Source of the DNA: an uncultured Fusobacteriaceae bacterium
Lineage (GTDB): Bacteria; Fusobacteriota; Fusobacteriia; Fusobacteriales; Fusobacteriaceae
Length of the DNA stretch: 64,000 bases
Reading direction: 5' to 3'
NCBI GenBank assembly: GCA_947038515.1
Contig: CAMQWJ010000001.1
Span: 205,580-269,579, forward strand
Shown: positions 19,630 through 61,558 of the stretch, one piece after another
How the letters are laid out: the number at the start of each line of letters is the position of its first letter
How positions within the stretch are numbered: the first letter of the stretch is position 1
Notes under the pieces: model-generated
What the model saw: only the letters and a program-made list of their open reading frames with translations
Told to the model about the DNA's origin: nothing
Databases searched by the model: none
Made by a program: the position numbers and the translations under genes

Positions 19630-19666
19630 CTTTTACTCCTTTTTTATTTTTTTATATTAATTTTTA

Positions 19667-30276: not shown

Positions 30277-31008
30277 CTAAAATCCAAACAAATTTTTTAT
30301 TGTAAATAAAAACTCTCCATTTGCAAAAATAATTAATTTATCAAAAGCTAATAAAGTTCCCATAATTACCAGAATAACTCCACTAACTTTATCTGACATT
30401 GCAAATATTCTTCTAAATTTAGTTAATCTATCTAAAAAGAAAGCAAAAAGTAAAAATGGAAGCCCCACTCCTAGAGTAAATATCCAAATATAGAAAATAC
30501 CTTCTTTTATAGTTGTATTTGTTGATAAATAAGAAAAAATTGTAAAAAGAATTGGACCCATACAAGGAACCCATCCAAATCCAAATGTAAATCCAAAAGC
30601 AAAAGAAGTTAAATAATTTTTTCTGACAAACTTTACTTCCATTCTTTTCTCTGAATATAATTTTTTTATTTTAAATACTCCTAAAACATTTAATCCCATT
30701 ATTATTATAAAAATTCCAAAAATAATATTTAATATTTTACTTTCTATAAATAAAGAAGCAAAATTAGTAAACTTAGACAATATTAATTGTAAGATTGAAA
30801 AAGCTGTCCCAAATCCAATTATAAAAAACACTGTATTTGAAATTATCCACCATCTTTTCTTTATATCTATTTCTTCTCCAATTACAACCCCTGAAATATA
30901 AGAAAGATAACTCGGAACAATTGGAATAATACAAGGACTTAAAAACATTCCCAAACCTGCCAAAAAAACAACTATAATACTTAAGCTTTCACCCATATTT
31001 CCCTCCAA
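30277..31008 (-). CDS. ccdA: Cytochrome c biogenesis/thiol-disulfide transporter CcdA (DsbD membrane domain)
   Basis: 243 aa, 6 TM; 'LSPCIIPIVPSYL' and a second conserved Cys 'WVPCMGPIL'. Confidence 0.75.
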   Translation of the reverse strand: MEGNMGESLSIIVVFLAGLGMFLSPCIIPIVPSYLSYISGVVIGEEIDIKKRWWIISNTVFFIIGFGTAFSILQLILSKFTNFASLFIESKILNIIFGIFIIIMGLNVLGVFKIKKLYSEKRMEVKFVRKNYLTSFAFGFTFGFGWVPCMGPILFTIFSYLSTNTTIKEGIFYIWIFTLGVGLPFLLFAFFLDRLTKFRRIFAMSDKVSGVILVIMGTLLAFDKLIIFANGEFLFTIKNLFGF

Positions 31009-31021
31009 AATATTATTCTTT

Positions 31022-31522
31022 TTATTGTATTTGAAGTTTATTTAATTCTTCAATTGTAACTTGATCCCAATTTACAGCTCCTGATATTCTCGCCATGATA
31101 ACACCCTCTTCATCAACAACATATGTTGTCGGAGTCCCACGTACTATAAATTTATTTGCTATTTTTTCATCTTTGTCATGGTAATACTTATACGCTGCAG
31201 GATGTTTTTTCACATACTCATCTATGGATTTTCCACTTCCTCCTATAAAAATAGACACAACATTTAGATCTTTTTTATTATTTTTATAAAAATTACTTAA
31301 TAATGGTCTTTCTTCTGTACAATAAGTACACCAAGTTGTTACAAAACTATAGATTGTTTTTTTTCCTTCTAATTCTTTAGAAGTTATTTTATCTTTTCCA
31401 TCAGTTGAAATTAATGTTATCTCTGGAAATAAATTATTCTTTTGTAATCCATATTTTTTCGTAGTATCCTTTGAAAAACCCACTACTGATAACATCATTA
31501 ACAATATTATTACTTTTTTCAT
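31022..31522 (-). CDS. TlpA/ResA-like thioredoxin-fold thiol-disulfide oxidoreductase
   Basis: Signal peptide; 'WCTYCTEE' CxxC active site. Directly downstream of ccdA. Confidence 0.75.
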   Translation of the reverse strand: MKKVIILLMMLSVVGFSKDTTKKYGLQKNNLFPEITLISTDGKDKITSKELEGKKTIYSFVTTWCTYCTEERPLLSNFYKNNKKDLNVVSIFIGGSGKSIDEYVKKHPAAYKYYHDKDEKIANKFIVRGTPTTYVVDEEGVIMARISGAVNWDQVTIEELNKLQIQ

Positions 31523-40475: not shown

Positions 40476-40889
40476 TTAATTTTTATATGATTCTATTAAA
40501 TGTTTTACTATTGGAATATCTGCTGGAACCCAAACTAAAGATAATAAACTTTCTGGTTTAAGCCAAAGATATGCTTCATGCTCATTAAGTGTAAGTTTCC
40601 CTGCAATAATATCACATTCAAAACAAGTTAAATTAATAATAAAATTTTCTCGTTCACAAATTGTTTCCATTAAAATTTCTTTACTTTTTACTACTAAATC
40701 TAACTCTTCTTTAATCTCACGTTCTATTGCTTTTTCTTTTGTTTCGTTAGGTTCTATCTTACCGCCTGGAAATTCCCAATAATTTCCTAAATCTTTATCT
40801 TTATTTCTTAAAGTACAAAGAATTTCATTTCTTTCATTTTTAATAACTGCTCCTACAACATTTATTATTTTTTTATTGTTTATAGTCAT
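40476..40889 (-). CDS. NUDIX hydrolase (MutT-like)
   Basis: Nudix box 'GGKIEPNETKEKAIEREIKEELDL'. Its start ATG overlaps the stop of the upstream helicase-nuclease as ATGA. Confidence 0.8.
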   Translation of the reverse strand: MTINNKKIINVVGAVIKNERNEILCTLRNKDKDLGNYWEFPGGKIEPNETKEKAIEREIKEELDLVVKSKEILMETICERENFIINLTCFECDIIAGKLTLNEHEAYLWLKPESLLSLVWVPADIPIVKHLIESYKN

Positions 40890-43756
40890 ATAAATTTTTC
40901 CTCCGAAATCAAATATTCATAAAGATGAGGTTCTATTTCATTTTCCATTTCCAAAACATATTTTACTAAATAAGTTTCATCACTTTTTTTAGTTTTAGTT
41001 GCTTCTTTTACATTTTTAACTTTACCTAAATAATAAAAATTTTCACTATTAGTTTTTTTCAAAAATATCTGAATATTGTAATAATTATTTGCAATAAGTC
41101 CTTCTTTTGTAATTTTTCCTTTTCTCTCCAAGTCTCTATTATTTTTAGAAAACCAAGTTAAAGTTTTAGAATTCAAAATTTTATTATCATATGATGTAAA
41201 CGAACTACTCGAATCCAAAGTTATAAAAACAGTTACAATTTTCGACTCATCAAAAATATTGTATCCACTCACTTGCAATCCATTATTAAAATCAAGATTC
41301 AAATATCTATGAGCTTCCTCTTTTGTATAAGATTTAAAAAGTGTTATTGCTTTTTGGGATAATTGCTTATAATTTTTTTCTATATAATTAAAATTATACT
41401 CTAACAAATCTAAAATCAGTGTTTCAAAATACTTATTTTTATTAAGTGATTCTTTAAAATCTTTCTTTAATAAATATGTATTCTTCTCTCCTTTCTCTAC
41501 CAGTGGAAGATAAGATTTTATAGTTGAAAAACTTGTGAAAATTGTCTTCATTAAATGAGAAAAAGCATTTTTAATATTGTCTTCTTGATCATATAAATCA
41601 TGTTTTGTCTCTAATATTTTTTTTATTCTATCCTCATCAATAAAATCATTTTCTATTAAATATTTTAATATTTCAAATTCATGAACTCTTTTTCCTGGAG
41701 TAAAAAACTTAGAAATAAAATTCAAATAATTTTTTTCATTCTCTGACAATTTTTTTGAATAGGAATTATAATCTTTATCAAGTATGCTTAATACTTCATC
41801 ATAATTACCCTTATATTTTAAAACTACACTTGGTTCTATCATATTTTTAGTAAAAAAATCATTTAAATAAGGAGTTCTTCCCAATTGTTTCTTCAACAAA
41901 TTAAAATTTTCTTGAATATTTTTTTTTGTTGAAAAATTCGTATTATTAATATTTTTAAAAATTGTCTCTTTAACTATTTCATCAAAAACTACAGAACTTT
42001 GCCCTGGTATTAAATCTGTTCCACCAGTAATAAATCTTTTCATAAAATCTTTATCATAACTATTATTTTGAGAAATAGCGATAGGAACAAGAAAGTTTTT
42101 ATCATAATTTCCTATAAAATCCAATATCACTACAAACTCTTTATCGACACATTTTCGAAGCCCACGTCCAAGCTGTTGAATATACACTATAGATGAGTCT
42201 GTTTCTCTTAGAAGCACTACCTGGTTTATACAAGGTATATCTATTCCCTCATTAAAAATATCAACGGTAATAATATAATCTAGTTCTCCCTCTTCCAGTT
42301 CTTCAATACTATTCTCTCTTATACTTTCACTATCATCACCTGATAAAAATTTTGTTCTAAAATTATAATTATTAAGAGCTTCACTTAAAAGCTTCCCTTC
42401 TAATCTCCCAGAAACAAAAATTAATCCTTTAACAACTGGTCCACTAAATCCATAATATTTTATCTTTTCAACAATATGTCTTATTCTCTCTTCACTTACT
42501 AAATCATTAATTGTTGATGTTTTAGATATCTCTTTTCCATCAACAAAAATATCTGAAATACCAAAATAATGAAAAGGACACAGTAAATTTTCATTTAAAG
42601 CATCATGTAATCTAATTTCATAAGCAATAGTATGATTAAAAAGTTCATAAATATCAAATTCATCATTTCTTTCTGGTGTTGCTGTCATTCCAAGTAAAAA
42701 TTTAGGCTTAAAATAATCCATAATTTTTTGGTACGTGCTTGCTCCACCATGATGAACTTCATCTACAACTATATAATCAAAAAAATCTGGACTAAATTTT
42801 TTCAAATGTTCATCTTTATTCAAAGTCTGAACCATACAAAAAAAATAATTTGAATTAAGGTCTGAATTAGCTTCATAAATTTCCATTTTGGTATGAGGTA
42901 TAATAGTTTCAAAAGTCTGCTTTGCTTTTGTTAAAATATTTTTTCTATGAGCAAGAAATAACATTTTTTTTGGTTTAACTTTTTTCACATCAAAAGCAGT
43001 TAAAAAAGTTTTCCCTGTTCCTGTTGCACTAATTAAAAGAGCTTTTTCTTTTCCTTGTTTTCTAAGTAATTCAATATTTAAAAGAGCCTCTTGCTGCATA
43101 AAGTTGGGTTTTATAATTTTTTTATTATTAGTACGACTATCTCTATTCCCCATTGGCAAATATCTTTTTTCTCTAAAAGCCTCATAAAGTTCATTATATT
43201 CACTTACCTCGTATTCTGTAAGTGGTTCTAATGAATTATAAAGATAATTAAACTCTTCTAAAATTTCTTTAACAATTTTTCCTTTATCTAAAGAGGTTAT
43301 CTTAAAGTTCCATTCATGATTAGTTGTTAAAGCATTTTGAGTAAGGTTACTACTTCCAACTATTAAGCTCCAAACATTATTTTTTCTAAAGAAAAAACCT
43401 TTAGCATGAAGATTTTCTCCTTTTAAAAGTCTCAGTTTAATATTTTTAAATTCTAATAACCTAGATAATGCTTTTGGTTGTGAAAAATTAAGATAATCTC
43501 CTGTTAATATTTTACCTTTAATTCCTCTTTTTTCTAAAATTCTTAATTGTTCCAATAGTAATATTAATCCACTTTCTGTTATAAAAGCTACTGAAATCAA
43601 AAATTCATCACACTCTTCCAATTCCTGACGAATTGTCATTACAATTTGTTCTTTTCTATTTGTCAATAATCTATGTTGATAAGAATAATTAGAATTCGTT
43701 TCTCTACTAATTAAACTTGTTTCTGCACTTTTTAAAATTTCCCTTGATACTATCAT
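40886..43756 (-). CDS. PLD-like nuclease / SF2 (ResIII-type DEVH) helicase / long uncharacterised C-terminal domain (DUF3427-like architecture)
   Basis: N-terminal PLD-like 'LHAKGFFF...GSSNLT', Walker A 'ISATGTGKT', 'VVDEVHHGG', a helicase-C block, and a ~330-aa C-terminal extension. Confidence 0.8.
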   Translation of the reverse strand: MIVSREILKSAETSLISRETNSNYSYQHRLLTNRKEQIVMTIRQELEECDEFLISVAFITESGLILLLEQLRILEKRGIKGKILTGDYLNFSQPKALSRLLEFKNIKLRLLKGENLHAKGFFFRKNNVWSLIVGSSNLTQNALTTNHEWNFKITSLDKGKIVKEILEEFNYLYNSLEPLTEYEVSEYNELYEAFREKRYLPMGNRDSRTNNKKIIKPNFMQQEALLNIELLRKQGKEKALLISATGTGKTFLTAFDVKKVKPKKMLFLAHRKNILTKAKQTFETIIPHTKMEIYEANSDLNSNYFFCMVQTLNKDEHLKKFSPDFFDYIVVDEVHHGGASTYQKIMDYFKPKFLLGMTATPERNDEFDIYELFNHTIAYEIRLHDALNENLLCPFHYFGISDIFVDGKEISKTSTINDLVSEERIRHIVEKIKYYGFSGPVVKGLIFVSGRLEGKLLSEALNNYNFRTKFLSGDDSESIRENSIEELEEGELDYIITVDIFNEGIDIPCINQVVLLRETDSSIVYIQQLGRGLRKCVDKEFVVILDFIGNYDKNFLVPIAISQNNSYDKDFMKRFITGGTDLIPGQSSVVFDEIVKETIFKNINNTNFSTKKNIQENFNLLKKQLGRTPYLNDFFTKNMIEPSVVLKYKGNYDEVLSILDKDYNSYSKKLSENEKNYLNFISKFFTPGKRVHEFEILKYLIENDFIDEDRIKKILETKHDLYDQEDNIKNAFSHLMKTIFTSFSTIKSYLPLVEKGEKNTYLLKKDFKESLNKNKYFETLILDLLEYNFNYIEKNYKQLSQKAITLFKSYTKEEAHRYLNLDFNNGLQVSGYNIFDESKIVTVFITLDSSSSFTSYDNKILNSKTLTWFSKNNRDLERKGKITKEGLIANNYYNIQIFLKKTNSENFYYLGKVKNVKEATKTKKSDETYLVKYVLEMENEIEPHLYEYLISEEKFI

Positions 43757-43968
43757 TTTATTCTCCTAACTTAAATATTATTATTTTTATTCATAAAAAA
43801 TAACCTTGATAAATAGAGTATACCAATCTCTATCTATAGTTGTAAAGGTTTTATTGTTCTAGTTTTTTATAAAAATAGCAATTTGACTTTCAATATAATA
43901 GGGCGTATAATATTTTTAGGTATTAATTTTTTATTATTATTTTATTTTTTAAAATTAGGAGGAATCTC

Positions 43969-44613
43969 ATGATATCAGAAAAATTAACTCTCTTAAGAGA
44001 AAATTTTAAAAACAATGCTTCTCCTGAAGCGAAAAAAATTATTATGAATAGTTTAAATGAGCTAAAAACAAAGAAAATTTTAGAAACTTCTTTAAAAATT
44101 GGTGATAAAATACCCAACTTTACTTTATCAAACTCAGAAAATATAAATATTAATTCTGATGATTTATTATCTAAGGGCGAGCTTATTATCAATTTTTATA
44201 GAGGTAGTTGGTGACCATACTGTGCCATAGAGCTTGGAGGTTTCCAAGACATATTAACAAAAATTAGAAGTAAAGGAGCAGAAATAATTGCCCTCTCTCC
44301 TGAATTACCAGAAAAATCTTCTGTTTTTAAAAAAAAATTAAGTCTTGATTATGAAATTCTTACTGATAAAAATAACGAAATTGCAAAAGCTTTTGGAATT
44401 TCATTTACTTTAGATGACGAATTGATAGAACTTTATAAGGAGTTCTCTATTGATTTGAAAATATCTAATGGTACTAACAATTGGGAACTACCTGTTCCTG
44501 CAACATACATAATTAGTCGTGAAGGAATTATTCTTTTTTCCTGGTTAGATTTAGATTATACCAAAAGGGTTGAACCAGAGGATATTTATGCTCTTTTAAG
44601 TGATAAAAATTAA
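43969..44613 (+). CDS. Peroxiredoxin-like (AhpC/TSA, redoxin) thiol-disulfide oxidoreductase with in-frame TGA at 44212-44214 (putative selenocysteine; W-U-P-Y-C)
   Basis: ORFs 43969-44214 and 44422-44613 are in the same frame. No other stop lies between them. The TGA replaces the first Cys of the 'FYRGSW-C-PYC' active site. Confidence 0.5.
44233..44248 (+). promoter_or_regulatory. Candidate bacterial SECIS apical stem-loop (CTTGGA-GGTT-TCCAAG) 19 nt downstream of the in-frame TGA
   Basis: Perfect 6-bp stem with a GGUU apical loop. The G-U in the loop and the distance to the UGA fit the bacterial SECIS model. Confidence 0.45.
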
Positions 44614-44773
44614 ATATTTTATTGAATAAAAAATTAAAACCTATAGAAAGAATTAAAAAATAAAATCTTACCCTAGAGATTGGGGAATAATAGTATTATT
44701 AGAATAATCAATAAAAAATGGGTCGAATTCTATTCTTCCCATTTTTTTAATTCTAAATATTCTTTTAAAAGAA

Positions 44774-45121
44774 TTAAAATGTTATAACTTTAATTCCATT
44801 TTTTAAATACTCTGTTAAAGGTATTCCCATATAAATAACTTTTAGTTCCAATTTGTTTTCTAAAATATCAGTTACTCCATACTCATCTGCACAGGCACGA
44901 CAAGCTAAAACTTCAACTCCAGACTCTTTGATAACTCTCAGATAATTTTGAATTTCTATATTTTCACTTAAAAGTTTAGTTGAAGGTCCCCAAACAACTA
45001 AAGTTACTTCTTCCCACCATGATTTTAATTTAGAGTTTAATGTATACATAAATACCATTTTTAAGGCAACTTCTATATCTGAACTTGTCCATAAAACTAC
45101 TAATTTTTCATCATTTTTCAT
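44774..45121 (-). CDS. DsrE/DsrF-like (YchN-fold) sulfur-relay family protein
   Basis: 115 aa; family-size protein with conserved Cys ('ACRACADEYG'). Confidence 0.55.
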   Translation of the reverse strand: MKNDEKLVVLWTSSDIEVALKMVFMYTLNSKLKSWWEEVTLVVWGPSTKLLSENIEIQNYLRVIKESGVEVLACRACADEYGVTDILENKLELKVIYMGIPLTEYLKNGIKVITF

Positions 45122-45142
45122 AAGTATTATCTCCTTTTTTAA

Positions 45143-46219
45143 TTATAGAAAAATACAAATTGACCCTTTTGGTCCGAAACATTTATTGCATGAAATACAT
45201 TTAGATGTTTTATCTGATTCTAATTTCCATTTTTCTATTAAATCTGGTTCTCTAAGAAGTGGTCTAGCCATTGAAATATATTCTATATTTCCTTTATTCA
45301 GCACTTCTTCAATATTTTCAAGAGTACGATGACCACCAATTAAAGAGATTGGAGTTGAAATTATATCCGATATTTTTAATGCAAACTCTTTAAAGTATGC
45401 TTCTTTTTCTGGACCATCTATTCGAGTTCTAATAACTCCTTCATATTTTCTTGAAGTTGCATTTCCACCACTTACTTCAATAAGATCAATTCCTTCTTCA
45501 GATAGTTTTTTACAAACCCACATCATATCATCAGTTGTAGCTCCACCATCCATAAAATCTTCACAATTAACTTTAATAAAAATAGGGAAATCTCCTACTT
45601 TTTTTCTTACCTCTGCATATACTTCAAAAAGAAATCTTGATCTATTCTCAATACTTCCTCCATATTCATCTTCTCTCTTATTAAAAAATGGATTTATAAA
45701 TTGACTAATCAGGTATCCGTGAGCTCCATGTAATTGAACAGCATCAAAATTTGCTTCTTTAGCCCTTTGAGCTGCCTCTGCAAATTTTTCAACCAATTTT
45801 TTAATATCTTCTTTAGACAGCTCTTGAGCTTCTAGCTTCGTTACAGGATTAATATGAACCGAAGGTCCAACTATCTTTTTACTTATCCCTGGGCTTCCCT
45901 GAGAACCTCCTACAACTATTTGCAATACAATATTAGCTCCATTTTCATGAACTGTTTTTGTTAATTTTTGCAATCCTGGTATAAAGCTATCATCGTATGC
46001 AGATATCATATTATGAGCTGGTCTATCATAATCAACTATAGAGGTAAATCCAGTTATAATTGTTCCTACACCTCCAACAGCTAATTTTTTATAAAATTCT
46101 ATTAGATTCTCTGTTACATAACCTTTTTCATCTGAAAATCCTTCCCAAATTGCACTTCTAATAATTCTATTTTTAAATTCCATCTTTTTTATTTTTGTTT
46201 TATCAAATATAGTTTTCAT
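45143..46219 (-). CDS. NADH:flavin oxidoreductase, Old Yellow Enzyme family
   Basis: OYE TIM-barrel pattern ('HGAHGYLISQF'). C-terminal Cys cluster 'CISCNKC...C'. Confidence 0.85.
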   Translation of the reverse strand: MKTIFDKTKIKKMEFKNRIIRSAIWEGFSDEKGYVTENLIEFYKKLAVGGVGTIITGFTSIVDYDRPAHNMISAYDDSFIPGLQKLTKTVHENGANIVLQIVVGGSQGSPGISKKIVGPSVHINPVTKLEAQELSKEDIKKLVEKFAEAAQRAKEANFDAVQLHGAHGYLISQFINPFFNKREDEYGGSIENRSRFLFEVYAEVRKKVGDFPIFIKVNCEDFMDGGATTDDMMWVCKKLSEEGIDLIEVSGGNATSRKYEGVIRTRIDGPEKEAYFKEFALKISDIISTPISLIGGHRTLENIEEVLNKGNIEYISMARPLLREPDLIEKWKLESDKTSKCISCNKCFGPKGSICIFL

Positions 46220-47175
46220 TAGTTTCTCCTTTTTTTCTTTAAGATATATATTATTATCATTCCAATTAGAAAAGAAAAAATTATTATATAATGATAAATA
46301 TTAGTTCTCTTCTCATAATATAAATTTAGTTCTTCCTTTCCTTCTACAATACCTTGAATAGCAGCTTTTTGCTTTATATTCAACATGGATATCACAGGTA
46401 TTTTTTTCTTTGTATAATATTTTTCTAATTGTTCGTGTAACAAATTGCCACCAATATTAAAAAAAAATTTAATTTCTCCAAAATCATTAAAAAATTCTAT
46501 TCTTTCTTTCAAATTTTCTTTATAATCTTCATTATAAAATTTTTTAATATCTAATTTTTCTATTCTTTTCTCAATTTTCCTTTTTATTTCATCATCAAAA
46601 TTTTTACCAAGATCACTATCTCCACCTAATGAATAAGCATTTATAAAATTTTTAATCATTCCTTTTTCTTTCAAAAAATAAGCCATCTCCAAAAATGTAA
46701 ACTCTTCATTATTTGCTCCATACATAGAGGAACCTATTGAATTAACAATTATAGCTCTCAACTCTAAAATATCTAATGCAGAAATTAATGAAATATTCAT
46801 TCCAGGGAATGAACTTGACATATTCACTGCGACTAGATCACCTTTTTTTAAACCTTTTTTCTTTAATACTTTAACAAAATAACTAGAAAAATTAGGATTT
46901 GTTGATATTTTTTTACTTTCTAAATCACCTAATGTTGTTGTTATTCCTGTAAATTCTTCTCCTATCATTCCTGTTTTCTTTAAATCTATTTCTTCATCAA
47001 TAAATATTCCTCTTCTCAATTTTTCACAATAGATCTCTTCATACAGTTTCAAAGTATTTTTTTTAGCCTTTAACATTTCATTATGATAGATTACTTTCTC
47101 ACGATAGATATTTTTATCCATCATAAATAGTACAACTATTATGACACATAGAATATAAGTAAACTTGTTTTTCAT
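46219..47175 (-). CDS. Poly-gamma-glutamate system protein (PgsAA-like accessory)
   Basis: N-terminal TM anchor. Sits directly downstream of pgsB-pgsC in the same operon, with an overlapping stop/start. Confidence 0.45.
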   Translation of the reverse strand: MKNKFTYILCVIIVVLFMMDKNIYREKVIYHNEMLKAKKNTLKLYEEIYCEKLRRGIFIDEEIDLKKTGMIGEEFTGITTTLGDLESKKISTNPNFSSYFVKVLKKKGLKKGDLVAVNMSSSFPGMNISLISALDILELRAIIVNSIGSSMYGANNEEFTFLEMAYFLKEKGMIKNFINAYSLGGDSDLGKNFDDEIKRKIEKRIEKLDIKKFYNEDYKENLKERIEFFNDFGEIKFFFNIGGNLLHEQLEKYYTKKKIPVISMLNIKQKAAIQGIVEGKEELNLYYEKRTNIYHYIIIFSFLIGMIIIYILKKKRRN

Positions 47176-47600
47176 ATAATTCCTTCTACTAAAATAATAA
47201 TACTTTTCATAACTATACTTAAAATAATTAAAGAAGGCAATACTCTTTTCACTCCATTTTTCTCAAAATCCTGAGCCAAAATAGCAGGAATCAATATCCC
47301 TATTATAGCACTTCCTATCAAAATTTCCAAATCAAGATACCAAAATATTTTTTTTATAGCAAAAGATAACACAATATATATTGCAAATTTTCTTCTTCCG
47401 AAAAGGATTAAATAATTTTCTAATATTTTAACTGTATAAAATAATAAAAGTGAAATTAAAACTGTTAAAATTATTCTTTGAGGCTCATTAAAAAAAAGAG
47501 CAAAATATCCTGGAACAATCATTCCACCAGGTGACATTTCAGTTATTTCATAAAAAAATATACTTAAAATTACTCCTAAGACAACTATTGTCTCATTCAT
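47172..47600 (-). CDS. pgsC: Poly-gamma-glutamate biosynthesis membrane protein PgsC/CapC
   Basis: 142-aa 4-TM protein, the size and position of CapC. Confidence 0.6.
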   Translation of the reverse strand: MNETIVVLGVILSIFFYEITEMSPGGMIVPGYFALFFNEPQRIILTVLISLLLFYTVKILENYLILFGRRKFAIYIVLSFAIKKIFWYLDLEILIGSAIIGILIPAILAQDFEKNGVKRVLPSLIILSIVMKSIIILVEGII

Positions 47601-48726
47601 CTACTCCCCCTCCAGTTTCTAATTTTTCAACAATTTTTTTTCCTTCTCCACAAATATTACCAATAGCAAAAATCAATATTTCTTCCTCTATATCATCAAA
47701 ATATTTTATTGAATCTACTATTTCTATTTTTTTTTCTATTTTTTTTAATCCTTTACAAAAATTTCTTTTATTTTCGCCTGAAATTATTATTTTTTCAAAA
47801 TCATTTTCTATATTTAAAGTAAAGTTTTCAAACTGTTTCATTCGACTAATTCTATCTTTCCTATTATTAACCATTAAATATTTAGTTTTTGTCCAAATTT
47901 CTTTTTTTCTATAAAAATCTATAATTTTTTTAGTAGAATCTGGATCATTAGCAGCTAAAGCATTTATAAAAAGAATTTTTCCACCTTTTTTAGTTAGATA
48001 TTCAACTTCTTTTAAAACTCCTGGATCTTTTTTATATTCTTTCATTCTTTGAAGTGCAATTTCTTTTTTCACTCCTAAATGTTCACAAATTTTCAAAGCA
48101 AGTCCAACATTTTCTATAAAGTCAATTTCTCTATATTCCTCTTCTTCTGCTGTAACTAAATAAGTCTTTGTATTTTTCTTTTTAGCACATTCTTTAAAAA
48201 ACTCAAAATATCTTTTATCTGATGTAAAAAGAAAGCCATTTTTAGGAATTGTTAAACTCAAGGAAAAAGCTATTTCATCCAAGGTCTCCCCCATCTCATC
48301 TAAATGATCTTCTCTAACATTTGTAATAAGAGTTATATTGGATTTCACAATCTTTTCTTCACAAATTTTTTGTAACTCTGGATTTACAGCCATACATTCC
48401 AATATTAAAATATCCACTCCTAAATTAGCAGCTTTTTTTATAAATTTTATTTGTTCTCTAATATTTGGTAAACCTCTTCTAAATATTTTCTTTTCTACTC
48501 CATCAATATCAATATACCGCGGTTCTGTTCCTGTTATTTTAGTAAAGATTTTCTTTTTCTCATCTCTAAGACCTGCATCTATTAATCTAGAAATTGTTGA
48601 TTTCCCTCTAATTCCATTAATATGAATAACCGTTTTTATTTTATTTCTATTCTTTTTTAATTCGATTTTTTCATATATAATTTTAGAAAAATATATAAAA
48701 GTTAAGATCAATACAACAATTTCCAT
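47593..48726 (-). CDS. pgsB: Poly-gamma-glutamate synthase PgsB/CapB (Mur-ligase-like amide ligase)
   Basis: N-terminal anchor, P-loop 'INGIRGKST', Mur ligase fold. Confidence 0.75.
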   Translation of the reverse strand: MEIVVLILTFIYFSKIIYEKIELKKNRNKIKTVIHINGIRGKSTISRLIDAGLRDEKKKIFTKITGTEPRYIDIDGVEKKIFRRGLPNIREQIKFIKKAANLGVDILILECMAVNPELQKICEEKIVKSNITLITNVREDHLDEMGETLDEIAFSLSLTIPKNGFLFTSDKRYFEFFKECAKKKNTKTYLVTAEEEEYREIDFIENVGLALKICEHLGVKKEIALQRMKEYKKDPGVLKEVEYLTKKGGKILFINALAANDPDSTKKIIDFYRKKEIWTKTKYLMVNNRKDRISRMKQFENFTLNIENDFEKIIISGENKRNFCKGLKKIEKKIEIVDSIKYFDDIEEEILIFAIGNICGEGKKIVEKLETGGGVDE

Positions 48727-48744
48727 ATAATAGCCCTCTTTTTA

Positions 48745-49872
48745 TTATTTTATTTCATTCAAATAATATCCTATTCCATTTTGTTTTATCTCTAAACTAC
48801 TAGGAACATTTTTTATTACCATAGCTTTTTCTGTTTCTAATTCCCCCATAGCATTTATAAGTGCCGTTATTCCTGCTATATGTCTTCCTACCCTCTCTTC
48901 TAAAGAGTGACCTTTTTCATCAAATGGAACAAATAATCTTCCTAATTTTTGAGCTTTTACATATGTTGGATCTATTCCTGTTAAAACTAATTTTTCATCA
49001 GTTTTTCCTCTCAGTCTTCCTTGACTTGGATTAGCAGTTTCCATTAAAATAGCATATGTATTAGTAAAATCTCCTAATTCTCTATGTGTCAAACCTCTTA
49101 AAGAGACAGGGGAAGGCTCTAAACCTATGGAAATATTCTCAAATTCTAGGTTCATTACTGCTGTTGAAGCAATTTCCATCGCCTTATCATGAGCAACCAT
49201 TGCATTTATTACTGGATATTCTGGTGAAGCTTCATGTAAATCTATTGTCATATTAATATTATTTTTTTTGATTAATTCTGTAATTCCATATGCTGCTTTT
49301 TCTGTAAAAGTACCATCAGCTCTTCCAGGATATGCTCTATTTATATTTCTTGTTTCATTTCCTGATAAACTTTGCCCCGAACTTGCATGAATATATACAT
49401 CTGGATCTGGCCATTGATCTAGAGGATTAGTTGCACGTGAACCATATCTAAACCATCTTTCTCCATTCTTTGTTTTTATATGAAATCTTTGAGGAGAGCC
49501 TTCTTGAGGATCATTATGGGTAAGTCCACTATTATTTGTTCTAGGAATCACATATAAAGTCCCTTTTTCAACCTCTGCTTTTTCTATTAAAAGTATCGCC
49601 CCCATTAATCCTGAAGGTTCATTTCCATGAGTTGCACCTAAAACAAGAGCTGTTCCTCCTTTTTCTTTTCCTTGAAGTATATATACTTCTGTATCAGCAT
49701 TTGTTCCTTTTACTCCTTCAAAAAAGTCACTTAGCATTTTTACTTCTGTTACTCCTTTTCCTTTTACAATAATTTCAGGTTCTCTATTCTTCACAAACTC
49801 TTTTCCTGCTAAAAAAGCAATAGATAAAGAGCATATTACTAAAATTATTGCACTAATCTTATTTCCTTTCAT
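48745..49872 (-). CDS. Secreted succinylglutamate-desuccinylase/aspartoacylase (M14-like zinc carboxypeptidase) family protein
   Basis: Signal peptide. 'GATHGNEPSG' zinc-binding motif typical of the AstE/AspA subfamily. Confidence 0.7.
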   Translation of the reverse strand: MKGNKISAIILVICSLSIAFLAGKEFVKNREPEIIVKGKGVTEVKMLSDFFEGVKGTNADTEVYILQGKEKGGTALVLGATHGNEPSGLMGAILLIEKAEVEKGTLYVIPRTNNSGLTHNDPQEGSPQRFHIKTKNGERWFRYGSRATNPLDQWPDPDVYIHASSGQSLSGNETRNINRAYPGRADGTFTEKAAYGITELIKKNNINMTIDLHEASPEYPVINAMVAHDKAMEIASTAVMNLEFENISIGLEPSPVSLRGLTHRELGDFTNTYAILMETANPSQGRLRGKTDEKLVLTGIDPTYVKAQKLGRLFVPFDEKGHSLEERVGRHIAGITALINAMGELETEKAMVIKNVPSSLEIKQNGIGYYLNEIK

Positions 49873-50045
49873 TCATCTACTCCTTCTATTTTATTAATAA
49901 TAATCTCAAAATTAAAGGTATTATTACCAATGCTGCATTTAATTGATTTAATAATTTTTTCTCTTCAAATAAATTTAAAATTACTAAGAAAAATATATAT
50001 AAAGTTATTCCTAAATATATTATCATCATTTTTATTCATCACTCC

Positions 50046-51344
50046 TTAATATATAATTGAAGCCAATTCTTTTGAAAATATAATCAAAATAATAGAGTAT
50101 ACTATTATAACTATTGCAGGTACTAAAGCTTTTTTTAATACTAGTGTGTATTCTTTTAACCCTACCACTTGAGCTGCAAAAATTCCTGCCAATGCTGTTG
50201 GAGGCATTAAATCTCCTAGTCCTGCTATAAAAGATATTGCTGAAGCTGTAATTATTTGATTGCTTCCTAAGAAAACCATTAAAAACGGCACACCTAGAAC
50301 AGAAGCTGCTCCAAAAGATGATACTGCTCCAAATAAAGGTATCGTTACTGCCATTGCTAAAAAAATAAGAGCTGGTGGCAAGCTTAAACTATTCACAACA
50401 ATAAATCCTCTTACACCTGTTAGAGTCATTACTTGAATAAACATTCCAACACCCATTAATATACCTAATACAGGTAATGTATCTTTTATTGCATCTTTTG
50501 ACACTTTTAAAAAATTGATTTTTTTACCACAAAATAGTGCTGCTATGGCACTAATCAAAAAGATTAAAGGCATTCCTAAATTAAAGAAATCTGGCATTAT
50601 TTTTCCTAATAACATTAAAACTACTCCTAATATTATTGGAATATATAACCTAACGCCATACTTGTCTATATCTTCAGTATTTATTTGATCTTTTATTTTA
50701 TTGTAATCTAAATTTTTTGTATGCTTTAACCCTAAATATAGAACTGTAAATATTGCTACTGGTACTGTTAAAATTAAAAGTGGAATTGTAAACCCTACAT
50801 AAGGCATATCTATTCCCCCACCTATTATCATAGCTGGTACATTTACTGGTGGAGCAATCATTCCAAGAATTCCACCTATTGCTATTATTGTCGCTGTTTC
50901 AACTATTGGTATTCCTATTAAAATCAAAATAGGAGCCACTATACTTCCCGCTGTAAGCACTGATGCAGTTGACGAACCTGTAATCATTCCGGGAAACATG
51001 CTAATAAACATTAAAAATATTAATAAAATACTTGGTTTCGAATGAAATTTATTCAAGATTGTTGAACTTAGGGCACTTAATGTTCCTAATTCTTGAAGAG
51101 TCTTCATAAAAATCATAGCTGTTGCAATTACAAGTATTGTATCTAAATATCCAAAAGTTCCTTCTACAAGATGTCTAATAGGAATTCCTTTTCCGGCAAT
51201 CAGAGTCCCTGCCACTGCTGATAGTAACATCGCAATACTTACAGGTAGTTTAAATTTGAAACAAGAAATAATAAAAACAATAACCATCCCTAAAAATATA
51301 ATTAATTCTATTGACACTTCTTCCTCCTTTGAATAAAAGGACAA
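50046..51344 (-). CDS. Polytopic membrane transporter (DctM/ion-transporter superfamily-like)
   Basis: 432 aa with about 12 TM segments; family assignment uncertain. Confidence 0.4.
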   Translation of the reverse strand: MSFYSKEEEVSIELIIFLGMVIVFIISCFKFKLPVSIAMLLSAVAGTLIAGKGIPIRHLVEGTFGYLDTILVIATAMIFMKTLQELGTLSALSSTILNKFHSKPSILLIFLMFISMFPGMITGSSTASVLTAGSIVAPILILIGIPIVETATIIAIGGILGMIAPPVNVPAMIIGGGIDMPYVGFTIPLLILTVPVAIFTVLYLGLKHTKNLDYNKIKDQINTEDIDKYGVRLYIPIILGVVLMLLGKIMPDFFNLGMPLIFLISAIAALFCGKKINFLKVSKDAIKDTLPVLGILMGVGMFIQVMTLTGVRGFIVVNSLSLPPALIFLAMAVTIPLFGAVSSFGAASVLGVPFLMVFLGSNQIITASAISFIAGLGDLMPPTALAGIFAAQVVGLKEYTLVLKKALVPAIVIIVYSIILIIFSKELASIIY

Positions 51345-51371
51345 CTTTTAGCTAGTTGTCCTTTCACTTTT

Positions 51372-51905
51372 TTATTCAAAAATTTCTTTTAATGGTCCTA
51401 CTGCTTCACTTATTTTATTAACTAATACCAATTTAATATTGTTATCTTTAGCCATTTTTGTGAAAGCACCATCTTTATTTCCTTCTGCTACAACTATTAA
51501 ATAGTCACATTTAGAAGAAGCTGCATTAACAAACTTATCTGATAATTCTCCTCTTCTTACTTGTCCACCAACATGCATTCCTACTATTTTAATTCCTTTT
51601 TTTCTAGCTGCATCTATTAATTTTTCTGATCTGTCTAATTCATCTTCCACTTTAATACCAGCTGCTCCTAATCCTTTTGAGCTTCCACCAATAGCAAGTA
51701 TTAATGTTTTTTCATTTTTTAATGTTTTATCCGTCACTGATTTATCAAATTTTGTTTCTAAATTTGCTTTTTTTAATAAAACTTTAACCATCTGTACATC
51801 TGCACTTTGTCCGATTGATGTTAGAATAATTGGTTTTTCAAATTTTTCTGCAAAAATAGATACTCCCAATAATAAAAATAATAATGTTATAAATTTTGTT
51901 TTCAT
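51372..51905 (-). CDS. Secreted hypothetical protein
   Basis: Signal peptide; 177 aa with no recognised motif. Confidence 0.4.
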   Translation of the reverse strand: MKTKFITLLFLLLGVSIFAEKFEKPIILTSIGQSADVQMVKVLLKKANLETKFDKSVTDKTLKNEKTLILAIGGSSKGLGAAGIKVEDELDRSEKLIDAARKKGIKIVGMHVGGQVRRGELSDKFVNAASSKCDYLIVVAEGNKDGAFTKMAKDNNIKLVLVNKISEAVGPLKEIFE

Positions 51906-51926
51906 CTTTAAACCTCCAATTTTTAA

Positions 51927-53666
51927 TTAAATACCTATTGCTTTTCCATCTCTTCTAGGGTCTGCTCCACCTTCTAAAGTTCCATCTTTTTTATAAAGAA
52001 CACCTTGAACCGATCCCATTCCTCTATCCCACTCAGTCGTTTTAGTTACCTCATGTCCCATTTTTTTCAATTTTTCTATTGTTTTATCTGAAATTCTACT
52101 TTCTACATTAATTTTGTTAGATGTATTATCAAATAATCTCGGTTCATCTATTGCTTCTTGCATTCCCATTTTATGATCTATAACTTTACTTATCACTTGA
52201 GATACTGTACTAATTATTTTAGTTGCACCTGGAGATCCTAATAACATAAATGGTTTCCCATCTTTTAATACTATTGTAGGCGACATTGAACTTAATGGAG
52301 ATTTACCTGGTTCCACTGAGTTAGGGTGATTACCACCAACAACAAAATCATCCATTTCATTATTAAGAACAAAACCATATCCATCAGCCACAATTCCATT
52401 TCCAAATAACCCATTAACTGTTTTTGTTATTGAAACCATGTTTCCTTCTTTATCTGCAATTGAATAATGTGTTGTATCCTCAGACTCATATATCCAAGGG
52501 TCATGAGAGACACTTTTCTTAGATTTTTTCATATCTATTTTCTTAGAAAGGTCCTTTGCATATTTTTTTGAAGTTAAACCCTTTAATGGTACAGGTGTAT
52601 AATCTGTATCCCCCATATATTTAGCCCTATCTGCATAAGCTAATTTATAAGCTTCTGAAAACAAATGTAAATACTCTGGTGAATTAACTTTTAATTTTCC
52701 AACATTAAAATTTTCTAATATATTTAATATCTGAATAACAATAGCTCCTCCAGAACTTGGAGCTGGTGATGAGATTATTTCATATCCTCTATAATTACCA
52801 ATAATAGGTTTTTTTATTTTGGGTTTATAATTAGCTAAATCTTCCATTGTAAATACTCCACCATATTTATTCAAAGAATTTACAATTGATTTTGCTACAT
52901 CTCCCTTATAGAAGCCCTCTTTTCCTTCCTTGATTATAAGTTCTAATACTTTAGTCATATCTTTATTAGTAAATTTTTCACCAATTTCATAAGCAAAACC
53001 TTCTTCTGTTAAAAAAACCTTACCAAATTCAGGATACTTTATCATCAAGTCATATTTATTTTTCATATCTGCTGAAAGTGTTGGTGTTACTATAAATCCT
53101 TCTTTAGCCAACTTAACAGATGGACGAATAACTTGCTCTCTAGACATTGTTCCATAATTTTCAAGAGCATAAATAAGACCTGCTACTTCTCCAGGAATTC
53201 CTGCAGCTTTTCCACCTTCTTTTTTTTCATTCCCTATTACGTCACCCTTTTCATTTACTTTCCACATATTCGATGTAGCATTTTTAGGTGCTCTCTCTCT
53301 AAAATCTACAAAAATAGTTTCACCTGTTTTAGCTATTCTTATTAGCATAAAACCTCCTCCTCCTAATCCTGAAGAGTTTGGTTCACTAACACCTAATGCA
53401 AATCCTGCTGCTACTGCTGCATCTATCGCATTTCCACCTTTTTTTAAAATATCCATTCCAATCTTACTTGCTTCATATTTCCCTGTAGAAACAACACCTA
53501 TTTTTCCTACTGCCCCTCTACCTGTTCTTATCATTTCTCCATTTTCATCAAAAGCTCTAAATTCTTTAGTAGTTAAAGAAGGTGTGGATGTTGCTACAGC
53601 TCCTTGCACTACATTAAATATAAAAAAAGTTGATAACAATGCTCTACATAAATATTTTTTTGTCAT
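51927..53666 (-). CDS. ggt: Gamma-glutamyltranspeptidase (GGT/CapD family), secreted
   Basis: Signal peptide. Autoprocessing/catalytic Thr region 'ESEDTTHYSIADKEGN'. Confidence 0.85.
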   Translation of the reverse strand: MTKKYLCRALLSTFFIFNVVQGAVATSTPSLTTKEFRAFDENGEMIRTGRGAVGKIGVVSTGKYEASKIGMDILKKGGNAIDAAVAAGFALGVSEPNSSGLGGGGFMLIRIAKTGETIFVDFRERAPKNATSNMWKVNEKGDVIGNEKKEGGKAAGIPGEVAGLIYALENYGTMSREQVIRPSVKLAKEGFIVTPTLSADMKNKYDLMIKYPEFGKVFLTEEGFAYEIGEKFTNKDMTKVLELIIKEGKEGFYKGDVAKSIVNSLNKYGGVFTMEDLANYKPKIKKPIIGNYRGYEIISSPAPSSGGAIVIQILNILENFNVGKLKVNSPEYLHLFSEAYKLAYADRAKYMGDTDYTPVPLKGLTSKKYAKDLSKKIDMKKSKKSVSHDPWIYESEDTTHYSIADKEGNMVSITKTVNGLFGNGIVADGYGFVLNNEMDDFVVGGNHPNSVEPGKSPLSSMSPTIVLKDGKPFMLLGSPGATKIISTVSQVISKVIDHKMGMQEAIDEPRLFDNTSNKINVESRISDKTIEKLKKMGHEVTKTTEWDRGMGSVQGVLYKKDGTLEGGADPRRDGKAIGI

Positions 53667-58385: not shown

Positions 58386-58931
58386 TTAGTAGTTTTTTAC
58401 TCTAAGCATAAAGTATGCTTTTGGATGTTCACAAACTGGGCAAAGATCAATTGCTTCTTTCCCTTTATAAGTGTGACCACAATTACTACATTCCCATTCA
58501 ACTACTTCACTTTTCTTAAAAACAGTTCCTGTTTCTATATTTTTTAATAAATTTCTATATCTTTCTTCATGTTGCTTTTCAATTAATGCAACAGAATCAA
58601 ATAGTACTGCAATATCTTCTAATCCCTCTTTTCTTGCATCAATAGCGAAATTTTTATACATATCAACCCATTCACCATGTTCTCCCTCAGCTGCTGCTAA
58701 TAGATTTTCAGCAGTGGAACCAATTCCAGCTCCTAATAATTTAAACCATATTTCTGCATGTTCTTTCTCATTATTTGCAGTTTCTTCAAAAATTTTAGAA
58801 ATTTGTACAAAACCATCTTTTTTAGCTTTACTTGCAAAAAATGTATATTTATTTCTTGCCTGTGATTCACCTGAAAATGCTTCCTGTAAATTCTTTTCTG
58901 TTTGTGTTCCTTTTAATTTTGTATTTGTCAT
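58386..58931 (-). CDS. rbr: Rubrerythrin
   Basis: Ferritin-like di-iron ExxH motifs and a C-terminal rubredoxin-like 'CSNCGH...CPVCEH'. Confidence 0.85.
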   Translation of the reverse strand: MTNTKLKGTQTEKNLQEAFSGESQARNKYTFFASKAKKDGFVQISKIFEETANNEKEHAEIWFKLLGAGIGSTAENLLAAAEGEHGEWVDMYKNFAIDARKEGLEDIAVLFDSVALIEKQHEERYRNLLKNIETGTVFKKSEVVEWECSNCGHTYKGKEAIDLCPVCEHPKAYFMLRVKNY

Positions 58932-59129
58932 AACTGCCTCCCTTATTTTGTTAAAAATTATATTTTTTAATATAACTCTACTTTAAGTATACTCTTTGTC
59001 CAATCTAGTGTCAAGAACACTTTTTTCCTTATCACCAGATTTAAAACTTTGTTTCCTACCATTTTAGTTTTATTAAATTATTACTCTTGTACTAATAATA
59101 TACGCTAATAATAAGAATAATCCTCTATT

Positions 59130-60479
59130 TTAATTTTTTTTTAAAAATTTCAAATATTTTGTAAGATGATTAATATAACTTTTTTTAGCTAAATTTCTTA
59201 AGGAAACTCCATAAGTTGGATATGCTTGAATTGAGTCTGCAAATTTGTATAATGGAATCTTTTTTGATTTTAAAAATTGGATAGTAGAAATAATTTCTCC
59301 TGATCTATCACCTATACAAGATGCACCTAATATTCTCTCGTTTTTATCAACTATTATTTCTAAATTAAAATATTCTTCACTAGTTGAAAGAGATCTATCA
59401 TTTTCACTCTTGTCTAATTTATATATAGTATATTCAGAATATTTTTCTTTTGTTTCTTTTTTAGTTAATCCTGTTCTAGAAAATTCAGGATTAGAAAATA
59501 CTGTCCATGGAACACTTGTATAATCAACAGATTTTTTTATCAATGGAAACAAGAGATTTCTTACAATAACTTCTCCATGATATCCTGCCATATGAGAAAA
59601 ACGATATGGTCCTACAACATCCCCACCACTTAGAACATTTGGTGATGTTGTTCTTAAATATTTATCAACAATGATACCATTTCTATCATATTTAATTTTT
59701 GCATTTTCTAATTTTAAATCTTCTATATTAGGAACTCTACCAGTGGATAAAAATATCTCCTCTGATTCTATCATTAAGTTTTTTTCTTCTGAGCTTATTT
59801 TTACACCAATTGGAGAACTCTCTAATTTTAATGCTCCCACACCTAAATATAGTTTAATCCCTTCTTTTTTTAGTTTTTCTTCATAGTATACCCCTATTTC
59901 TTCATCTTCACGTGAAAAAAGAGTTGGTGAAACTTCTAAAATAGTTACTTCAACACCAAGTTTTTTTAGTGGAAAAGCCAATTCTAATGAGATAACTCCA
60001 CCACCTATAAAAGTTATAGAGCGAGGAATTTTTTTCATTTTAAAAAAATTTTCATTATTCAAATATTTTATAGTATCAAGTCCTGGTATTTTAGGAGTTG
60101 ATGGTGAAGTTCCTGTTGCTATAATAATTTTTTTACCTTCATAAACATCTTCTCCAACTTGAATTTGATTCTCTGAAACAAAAAATCCTTTTCCTTTTAA
60201 AAATACAATTCCCATTTTCTCTAATTTTTCTGGATTTTCATTTAAGTATACTTCCTCTTGAATTTCTCGAACTCTTTCTAAAACATCACCAGAATAATTT
60301 TTATTAACAAGTGATATAAATGCTTTAGAGGGAATACAACCGTTCCAAGTACATTCACCACCACTTTTATTTTTTTCAACTAATAAAACTTTTTTACCAC
60401 TAAGTACACTTCCTATTGCTACTGTTAATCCTAGTGCACCACTTCCTAAAACAATAACATCATATTTTATATTTTTCAT
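59130..60479 (-). CDS. Pyridine nucleotide-disulfide oxidoreductase (dihydrolipoamide dehydrogenase / mercuric reductase-like class I)
   Basis: 'VIVLGSGALG' FAD fold, redox-active disulfide 'GGECTWNGCIPSK', dimerisation domain. Confidence 0.8.
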   Translation of the reverse strand: MKNIKYDVIVLGSGALGLTVAIGSVLSGKKVLLVEKNKSGGECTWNGCIPSKAFISLVNKNYSGDVLERVREIQEEVYLNENPEKLEKMGIVFLKGKGFFVSENQIQVGEDVYEGKKIIIATGTSPSTPKIPGLDTIKYLNNENFFKMKKIPRSITFIGGGVISLELAFPLKKLGVEVTILEVSPTLFSREDEEIGVYYEEKLKKEGIKLYLGVGALKLESSPIGVKISSEEKNLMIESEEIFLSTGRVPNIEDLKLENAKIKYDRNGIIVDKYLRTTSPNVLSGGDVVGPYRFSHMAGYHGEVIVRNLLFPLIKKSVDYTSVPWTVFSNPEFSRTGLTKKETKEKYSEYTIYKLDKSENDRSLSTSEEYFNLEIIVDKNERILGASCIGDRSGEIISTIQFLKSKKIPLYKFADSIQAYPTYGVSLRNLAKKSYINHLTKYLKFLKKN

Positions 60480-60553
60480 TTATAACTCCTTTTTTATTTA
60501 GAAAATTAAAAATATTTTTTAGAATCTAATGAAATTCTTTTATAATCTAAGAA

Positions 60554-61558
60554 TTAAAACAATTTTTTCCACTCTCCATACCCTTCTTTTTCAAAAGATT
60601 CTAAAGGTATAAATTTAAGAGCAGCAGAATTCATGCAATATCTTAATCCATTTGGCTCTGGTCCATCATTAAATACATGTCCTATATGATTATTACCTTT
60701 TTTACTTCTAATTTCTGTTCTTTTAGTAAAAAGTGTGTTATCTTTTTTCTCTACAACTGCTTCTTCCTGTATAGGTTTTGAAAAAGTTGGCCATCCTGTC
60801 CCTGACTTATACTTATCTTTTGAACTAAATAGGACCTCTCCTGAAATCAAATCTACATATATACCATCTCTCTTATTATCCCAGTATTCATTTTTAAAAG
60901 GTGTTTCTGTGAAATTTTCTTGGGTTACTTTATATTGTAATTCTGTTAATTGTTTTTTCAACTCCTTAACCCCCTTCTCACCTCTTTTTTCTCCCCATAT
61001 CTTATCTAAAAACTCATCTCTTCCAGAACGACCTCTATAATATTTATATTTAAAACTATTTTTCTTATAGTAATCTTGATGGTATTCTTCTGCATTATAA
61101 AATGTAGTAGCTTTAGAAATTGGTGTTATTATAGGTTTTTCATAAACTCCTCTTTTATTTAACTTTTCTTTTGATTGTTCAGCTAATTTTTTTTGCTCAT
61201 TATTAAAATAGAAAATAGCTGAGCTATATTCATAGCCTCTATCAACAAATTGACCACCTACATCTGTAGGGTCTATTTGTTTCCAAAAAACATCTAGTAG
61301 TTTTTCATAACTTACTTTTGAAGGGTTATAAATAATTTTAATTGCTTCAATATGACCACCTTTTCCATAATTTTCATATGTTGGGTCTTTACTTGTACCA
61401 CCTATATAACCAGAAACAACTGCCTTTACACCATCTAATTTTTCAAATGGCTCTTCTAAACACCAAAAACAACCTCCTGCAAAAACTGCTTCTTTAAATT
61501 GTCCAGCAAAAACTAAATTACTTAATAAAAATATTGATGTCATCATAATTTTTTTCAT
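60554..61558 (-). CDS. msrAB: Bifunctional peptide methionine sulfoxide reductase MsrA/MsrB, secreted
   Basis: Signal peptide. MsrA '[11 protein letters not shown]'. MsrB '[10 protein letters not shown]...RYCMNSAAL'. Confidence 0.85.

Follow-up and report, generated by a model that had tools for sequence, protein, structure and literature searches.

A redoxin gene at positions 43969-44613 (forward strand) of the 64,000-nt stretch of uncultured Fusobacteriaceae DNA analysed here (the window) is interrupted by a single in-frame TGA codon. The gene very probably (roughly 85%) encodes a cytoplasmic thioredoxin-fold (AhpC/TSA-like) thiol:disulfide oxidoreductase of ~24 kDa, with selenocysteine (Sec) as the nucleophile in the motif U82-P-Y-C85. 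An earlier note on this DNA had proposed a peroxiredoxin (Prx)-like UxxC selenoprotein rather than a nonsense pseudogene; this proposal is supported by the TGA in all close relatives, the selection downstream of it, and the constraint on the hairpin that follows. In the proposed mechanism, the UGA would be recoded as Sec instead of being read as a stop. SelB-GTP-Sec-tRNA(Sec) would bind a stem-loop that starts 19 nt past the UGA, and the ribosome would go on for 132 more codons. The enzyme may then alternate between a selenolate/thiol and a selenenylsulfide (U82-C85) form. It probably acts as a CxxC-type reductase, with a disulfide, a sulfenate or an electrophile-modified compound as its substrate. 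The features of the gene are as follows:

43883-43911 (+): sigma-70-type promoter-like site, TTGACT-17 nt-TATAAT, 11/12 matches, 58 nt upstream of the start codon (consensus match only)
43957-43962 (+): strong Shine-Dalgarno sequence AGGAGG, separated by 6 nt from the ATG (seen in the sequence itself)
43969-44613 (+): coding sequence of the Prx-like (AhpC/TSA fold) redoxin, 214 codons with the Sec codon counted, followed by TAA (frame, Pfam match, homology, and the ratio of nonsynonymous to synonymous substitution rates, dN/dS)
44212-44214 (+): in-frame TGA, predicted selenocysteine U82, first residue of U-P-Y-C (Cys in the aligned Cys-type homologues; TGA at this codon in more than 200 related loci)
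44221-44223 (+): TGT, Cys85, second residue of UxxC
44227-44254 (+): predicted bacterial selenocysteine insertion sequence (SECIS) (fold, codon constraint, conservation in relatives, pair counts)
44233-44238 / 44243-44248 (+): upper stem CUUGGA/UCCAAG of this element, with the loop GGUU at 44239-44242 and a lower 3-bp stem at 44227-44229 / 44252-44254

Reading frame, active site and family

Translation yields a single frame, 214 sense codons long and closed by TAA, with the TGA at 44212-44214 as the sole internal stop, as the earlier note had described. The mechanical list of open reading frames (ORFs) splits this frame into an 81-aa ORF (43969-44214) and a TTG-started ORF of 63 aa (44422-44613). 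The peptide context around the stop is ...INFYRGSW-[TGA]-PYCAIELGGFQD..., in which the downstream part starts with PYCAIELGG, and the Sec-site peptide is predicted to be GSW-U-PYCAIELGGFQDILTK. The window has a GC content of 27.7% and is 90% coding. Its 56 long ORFs end with TAA (39), TAG (10) or TGA (7), and after every TGA stop the next stop lies within 0-14 codons. A reassigned genetic code (TGA as Trp or Gly; code 4 or 25) was ruled out, since TGA terminates 7 of the 56 ORFs and none of them is extended. TGA is thus a normal stop in this genome, and read-through at the redoxin TGA must be site-specific. The window scan revealed no second TGA-interrupted gene that was credible; the remaining candidates were antisense shadows of real ORFs. 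Promoter-type sites are fewer in this region than in shuffled sequences, and a consensus match of this kind is weak evidence by itself.

The closest relatives are two sister lineages of Fusobacteriaceae, represented by the metagenome-assembled genomes (MAGs) GCA_051659505.1 and GCA_051649945.1 (L216/L217) and by three further loci (L218-L220). They share 60-64% protein identity with the window gene and have a GC content of 28-29.5%. The earlier note had named decayed or frameshifted orthologues lacking the hairpin in close relatives as grounds for rejecting its reading; both sister lineages instead carry intact genes, in which codon 82 is the TGA, the 16-nt hairpin is the same as that of the window, and 134-139 codons are open after the TGA. 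These five loci read W-U-G-Y-C, not W-U-P-Y-C, which indicates that the residue after Sec (codon 83) is not fixed within the clade. The dN/dS ratios among the window gene and the sisters, calculated by the Nei-Gojobori method, were 0.32-0.37 after the TGA (at dS 0.5-0.85) and 0.14-0.24 before it. The downstream ratio was 0.34-0.37 for the window against the sisters and 0.32 for sister against sister. This purifying selection shows that the region after the TGA is translated. None of 5000 shuffles of the downstream sequence stayed open for 132 codons, and in every comparison the C-terminal part was better conserved than the N-terminal part. All copies in the species itself retain the TGA and the hairpin; its four variants also keep the frame, but they are only 2-3 substitutions apart, which gives little power.

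With Cys in place of the TGA, the product matched PF00578 (AhpC-TSA) with an E value of 1.1e-26 (93.6 bits; cut-off 26), and Redoxin PF08534 with 59.9 bits. No NCBIfam model reached its cut-off for this product; the scores were 61.6/140 bits for BCP, 55.8/170 for ResA (NF002854), and 30.6/120 for the SelL-related model (NF040769). Among the protein homologues (n = 1528), the full-length ones read W-C-P-Y-C. The TGA had been expected to fall on the first active-site Cys of Cys-containing orthologues, and this column is indeed Cys in all of the 78 aligned Cys-type proteins. The window protein is 31-41% identical to the Sec-type proteins of Geobacter, Desulfoluna and many others over ~205 residues. 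The closest Cys-type proteins are 48-49% identical, about equal to some Sec-type ones; no Cys allele above 50% identity was present in a collection of ~15 billion proteins.

The best matches among solved structures were the archaeal BCP proteins 2cx3 (E = 6e-12) and 2ywn (3e-11), followed by ResA 4nmu (2e-10). Sec82 occupies the position of the first Cys in the ResA CxxC and of the Thr/Ser in the Prx PxxxT/SxxC motif, and Cys85 that of the Prx peroxidatic Cys (2cx3 and 2ywn) and of the second Cys in ResA. The view that the TGA occupies the catalytic position needs a correction: it lies at the first Cys of CxxC, but this site corresponds to the Prx Thr/Ser, and the peroxidatic position is that of Cys85. 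The Prx Pro and Arg positions hold Arg78 and Pro177, so that of the classical PxxxT/SxxC and Arg set only the peroxidatic Cys is kept. The lack of the Prx Pro, Thr and Arg, with a Pro at the Arg position, suggests a CxxC-type reductase rather than a classical peroxiredoxin. Judged from these alignments, the product is predicted to be a thioredoxin-fold oxidoreductase of the CxxC type with the scaffold of a Prx, without being a classical peroxidase. Its N-terminus is extended by ~40 residues and carries no hydrophobic leader.

Comparison with the known families showed both similarities and differences. The BCP/PrxQ proteins (2cx3, 2ywn) share the core fold and the Cys85 position; however, they have no Sec, their PxxxT/SxxC and Arg set is not kept in the window protein, and they lack its N-terminal extension. 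The ResA/TlpA proteins (4nmu, 1st9) have W-C-x-x-C at the same place, with U82 corresponding to the first (nucleophilic) Cys; whereas these are membrane-anchored, extracytoplasmic Cys proteins, and the window protein has no hydrophobic N-terminus and scores far under the NCBIfam ResA cut-off. The Sec peroxiredoxins (Prx, TxxU; for example, PrxU of Clostridia) share the fold and the Pfam family, and a coding-region SECIS occurs in both. In the PrxU type, Sec replaces the peroxidatic Cys; in the window protein, the predicted Sec is three residues upstream, at the Thr/Ser position. A second Redoxin/AhpC-TSA protein is also encoded in the window. It is a Cys-type protein of 166 aa paired with a DsbD/CcdA-type membrane protein (30277-31522, -), and the pair looks like an extracytoplasmic thiol-disulfide system containing a fold paralogue of the Sec-type gene.

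The gene is an unannotated member of an already described UxxC selenoprotein family. This family was called 'Prx-like 1' in the Global Ocean Sampling (GOS) and Sargasso analyses, and 225 Sec sequences of "Prx-like 1 (pfam00578, UxxC)" were reported from the GOS data (PMC2398784). As "Prx-like thiol:disulfide oxidoreductase" it was recorded in 28 organisms and ranks in the top 20 of the bacterial families of selenoproteins (PMC5029168, Table 3). The family and the window gene have in common the AhpC/TSA domain, Sec as the first residue of UxxC with Cys in the paired homologues, and a SECIS directly after the UGA. The cited representative of the family is WP_010940744.1 (PMC13188914). The window copy differs from the usual members in its low-GC Fusobacteriaceae host, in the hairpin of its subclade (CUUGG-N6-CCAAG, encoding LGG[F/Y]Q), and in a loop at +27 as compared with +18 to +24. 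Moreover, the subclade differs from the wider family by a recurrent neighbourhood of OYE (Old Yellow Enzyme), FMN_red, ABM, SnoaL and TetR genes. The additions made here to the described family are modest: a distinct SECIS variant in a low-GC subclade, evidence for Sec use by an uncultured Fusobacteriaceae lineage, and the recurrent OYE/TetR neighbourhood.

The TGA form is widespread. A scan of one genome per species with a DNA pattern for Y-R-G-x-W-TGA-P-Y-C found at least 120 species loci, against a back-of-envelope chance expectation of a few. In all of the 120 loci listed, the frame is open past the TGA for ~100-200 codons save at contig ends, and the products are homologous to the window protein, usually across the TGA. 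A low-GC-biased pattern also matched 86 metagenome contigs, every one a true homologue.

The public records of these genes are mostly truncated. In a profile search with the fragment before the TGA, 112 of the 119 top hits were 80-85 aa long and ended at the Trp before the TGA; they were labelled "hypothetical protein" or "redoxin domain-containing protein" in their sources. For the species of the window, the 81-aa fragment is recorded on 19 + 9 contigs as "hypothetical protein", and the annotation sometimes also calls a C-terminal AhpC-TSA fragment. One ENA assembly (L125 / P0001) has the full 214-aa call with Trp at the TGA. Its contig was apparently translated by genetic code 4, which has placed a mistranslated redoxin in public protein collections. 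The homologue in the complete, PGAP-annotated genome of Oceanirhabdus sp. W0125-5 (L224, CP115913.1) is recorded solely as an 82-aa 'redoxin domain-containing protein', and Oceanirhabdus seepicola has two such truncated paralogues (P0304, P0355). The public calls thus cut the gene to 81 aa or read the UGA as Trp, in its own species and in more than 100 relatives. Such truncated calls suggest that the selenoproteome of low-GC anaerobes is under-counted.

The hairpin downstream of the TGA

The hairpin is the predicted signal for Sec insertion. The perfect 6-bp stem with a GGUU loop that the earlier note placed at 44233-44248 is present at these coordinates. The stem starts 19 nt after the last TGA base, and the loop starts 24 nt after the TGA. 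The published bacterial SECIS (bSECIS) model describes a loop of 3-9 nt, a stem of 4-16 bp, a G in the first two loop positions (usually G[G/U]), a UGA-to-loop spacing of 16-37 nt, and a minimum free energy (MFE) of -7.5 kcal/mol or lower (PMC13188914, section 5). The window element agrees with this model in every respect: a 4-nt GGUU loop, 6 bp, GG, 24 nt and -9.1 kcal/mol. Like the SECIS of E. coli fdhF/fdnG, it is a stem-loop within the coding region that closely follows the UGA on its 3' side and has G/U in its small apical loop; however, there is no sequence similarity between them, and a role as SelB site is presumed for the window element.

The hairpin is unusual for the peptide that it encodes. 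Among synonymous recodings of the same peptide, 1% yielded a perfect stem of at least 6 bp and 0.6% folded as stably; comparable hairpins occur in the window at 0.25 per kb. The stem is built from codons that are rare here: TTC accounts for 10% of the Phe codons, GAC for 10% of those for Asp, and CTT for 22% of those for Leu. Among 176 non-redundant Sec-type genes, the loop starts of hairpins with at least 6 bp are concentrated at +12 to +29 from the UGA. Counted in 3-nt bins, +18, +21, +24 and +27 contain 52, 46, 21 and 7 genes, compared with ~3 per bin elsewhere, and G-containing loops dominate. The window loop scored at +27 in this position count, which is the tail of the preferred zone.

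The core CUUGG...CCAAG is invariant in the ten lineages of the closest subclade, which range over 28-37% GC and 42-64% protein identity. The five core pairs form in 10/10 sequences, and 86.7% of the cells are paired as against 34-51% in slid controls. In the nine aligned subclade genes, Leu89 is always CTT (background 26%), Phe/Tyr92 always has a C-ending codon (background 26%), and Gln93 is always CAA. By comparison, the other 11 invariant-Leu columns use 2-5 codons each, and only 2 of the 44 other amino-acid-invariant columns have a single codon. The synonymous-site test was borderline with four sequences (p = 0.053) and clear with nine. The hairpin-encoded LGG[FY]Q was found in none of the 119 Cys-type homologues; the RNA structure appears to constrain the protein sequence at the hairpin. 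The SECIS-like reading of the earlier note is therefore supported by the published bSECIS criteria and by invariant rare codons across the subclade. If it acts as predicted, the hairpin offers a compact, well-defined SECIS variant.

Probable selenium use and competing explanations

Several observations weigh against the Sec reading. Genes for selA, selB, selD and tRNA-Sec were found neither in the window and the 10 kb beyond each end (84 kb in total) nor at the sister loci; the search comprised Pfam analysis of most long window ORFs and of both 10-kb extensions, together with tRNA scans of all related loci, and the scan of the window gave no tRNA. A 2026 review (PMC13188914) grades the family itself as 'predicted with high confidence' and not as verified by experiment. 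In the phylogeny, the nearest neighbours of the window protein are Sec-type, but with a neighbour-joining (NJ) bootstrap of 40%; the larger clades have 9-10%, and the tree is poorly resolved. The RNA support is mostly conservation, as double compensatory changes were found at two pairs in one distant locus alone (L094). The dinucleotide-shuffle z-score of the 64-nt segment (-0.87) was not significant, nor was a 45-nt sliding MFE profile over 112 Sec-type genes (z -0.32). Rfam gave no hit at the gathering threshold, and around the hairpin only chance-level hits with E up to 10. Finally, the gene is deleted in at least one strain, which indicates that it is dispensable.

Some of these points carry little weight. 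The 84 kb is a small part of the genome, and the missing four genes there mean little; the confinement of the machinery search to this region is nevertheless the main reason why the Sec reading is rated no higher than very probable. The shuffle z-score and the sliding MFE do not discriminate, and they were therefore replaced by the position-specific hairpin count and the synonymous recoding. Other Fusobacteria are known to use Sec: 11 selenoproteins are listed for Psychrilyobacter atlanticus, 2 for Ilyobacter polytropus, and 4 for each of two Leptotrichia (PMC5029168, supplement file 3). The Sec reading of the window gene would extend this to an uncultured Fusobacteriaceae lineage.

The alternative that survives best, though unlikely, is a genuine Sec-type gene inherited by a lineage that lost, or never had, a working Sec machinery. 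The UGA would then terminate translation, and the 81-residue product, which has no redox motif, would be non-functional. Such a relic would agree with the lack of sel genes and tRNA-Sec in the 84 kb, with the strain deletion in a variable region beside a defence-like helicase, and with a within-species diversity (2-3 substitutions) too low to show selection. However, the frame, the promoter, the Shine-Dalgarno sequence and the hairpin of rare GC-rich codons are all intact in a genome of 27.7% GC, and the dN/dS of the window against the sisters is no higher than that between the sisters. Three Fusobacteriaceae lineages would each need to have decayed recently.

Read-through without selenium is less probable still. 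Here a standard tRNA (a Trp or Cys near-cognate), maybe stimulated by the hairpin, would produce a full-length protein without Sec. A UGA followed by C or G is a weak termination context, which counts for this explanation, and purifying selection proves only the passage of the UGA and not the residue inserted. On the other hand, the codon is exactly at the redox Cys, where a Trp would destroy the active site, and for insertion of Cys a TGT or TGC codon would be simpler, as used by all of the 78 aligned Cys-type homologues. The hairpin also fits the SelB-type bSECIS model, and the arrangement recurs in hundreds of genomes of a recognised selenoprotein family.

That an ordinary Cys-type redoxin has recently acquired a nonsense mutation (TGT/TGC to TGA) is effectively refuted. 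One base change would suffice for it, and the closest Cys-type proteins match some Sec-type ones in similarity within a poorly resolved phylogeny; however, the homologous TGA is present in every close relative (ten lineages, each with the same hairpin), which excludes a simple mutation, the hairpin is encoded by no Cys-type homologue, and the species has no Cys allele. Two independent small genes, or an N-terminal product of 81 residues with a function of its own, can likewise be set aside in spite of the public annotation of an 81-aa 'hypothetical protein' and, at times, a C-terminal AhpC-TSA fragment, since the 81-aa piece stops one residue short of the active site, the next in-frame start (TTG 44422) misses the redox motif and half of the fold, and homology and purifying selection are unbroken across the TGA.

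Two neighbouring proteins encoded at 18730-22363 (-), an 898-aa Fe-S flavoprotein (Fer4_20 + Pyr_redox_2 + CCG + Fer4_17) and a double-rhodanese protein, belong to types among which selenoprotein families are known elsewhere, but neither frame is interrupted in the window.

Gene neighbourhood and strain variation

The genes downstream of the redoxin are as follows:

44774-45121 (-): DsrE-family ORF, convergent; adjacency not conserved, probably outside the system
45143-46219 (-): OYE-family NADH:flavin oxidoreductase (Oxidored_FMN); recurrent neighbour in the subclade, possible functional associate

The earlier note had pointed to adjacent DsrE-like and OYE genes. Both are at this place and the OYE gene recurs in relatives, but the DsrE-like gene is absent from all of the relatives' neighbourhoods. 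It is also deleted in a strain that keeps the redoxin gene (L124), in which no other gene of the pair is missing. The DsrE-like protein was therefore rejected as a functional partner. Another strain (L123) is without both the redoxin and the DsrE-like genes, through two separate deletions (43899-44685 and 44805-45134) between which the intergenic piece is kept.

On the upstream side, the immediate neighbour of the redoxin gene is a gene at 40886-43756 (-) for a 956-aa PLD-nuclease / SF2 helicase / DUF3427 protein, with a NUDIX gene at 40476-40889. The 956-aa protein looks like the product of a defence-type gene in a variable region. L123 has a DNA methylase gene and an HNH gene after the helicase, and the window has neither of them.

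Genes for OYE (at times fused to Pyr_redox_2), FMN_red, ABM, SnoaL_4 and TetR (TetR_C_13) recur beside the Sec-type gene. Loci with such OYE/TetR-type neighbours are L146, L158, L216-L219, L221, L222, L223 and that of Oceanirhabdus (L224). In the Fusobacteriaceae sisters, the gene lies between msrAB and TetR and adjoins the lysine-fermentation operon. By tblastn, 7 of 12 subclade loci had TetR and 5 had OYE; in the wider subfamily it was 1 locus of 60, and in the other W-U-P-Y-C subfamilies none of 141. The queries themselves belonged to the subclade and the loci are partly redundant, which makes the result a lead and not a proof.

The TetR-linked cluster with OYE and FMN reductases in the relatives suggests a role in the response to oxidant, electrophile or quinone stress. 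As a tentative and rather doubtful extension, the low-GC LGG[F/Y]Q subclade might form the thiol/selenol part of an undescribed TetR-controlled detoxification module. In such a module, the OYE and FMN reductases (some of them Pyr-redox-fused) might serve as electron donors to the selenoprotein, which would repair or reduce electrophile-, quinone- or oxidant-damaged substrates. If true, the electrophile stress response of anaerobes such as Fusobacteriaceae and Clostridiaceae would have a branch that depends on selenium. The link with OYE, FMN reductases and TetR is a testable functional lead for a family that is still only "predicted".

Other genes of the window were also noted. An oxidative-stress cluster at 58386-61558 (-) encodes a rubrerythrin, a 449-aa pyridine-nucleotide-disulfide oxidoreductase, and a fused MsrA-MsrB. 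The 449-aa disulfide reductase shares 58% identity with proteins of "Fusobacteriaceae bacterium" MAGs and ~51% with those of Cetobacterium. A 595-aa ORF without a Pfam match (25305-27092, +) directly follows a 922-aa SNF2-family helicase (22528-25296). The region 47172-53666 (-) contains poly-gamma-glutamate capsule genes (Mur_ligase_M/CapB-like and CapC), together with genes for a gamma-glutamyltranspeptidase, a DUF6305 protein and a DctM transporter.

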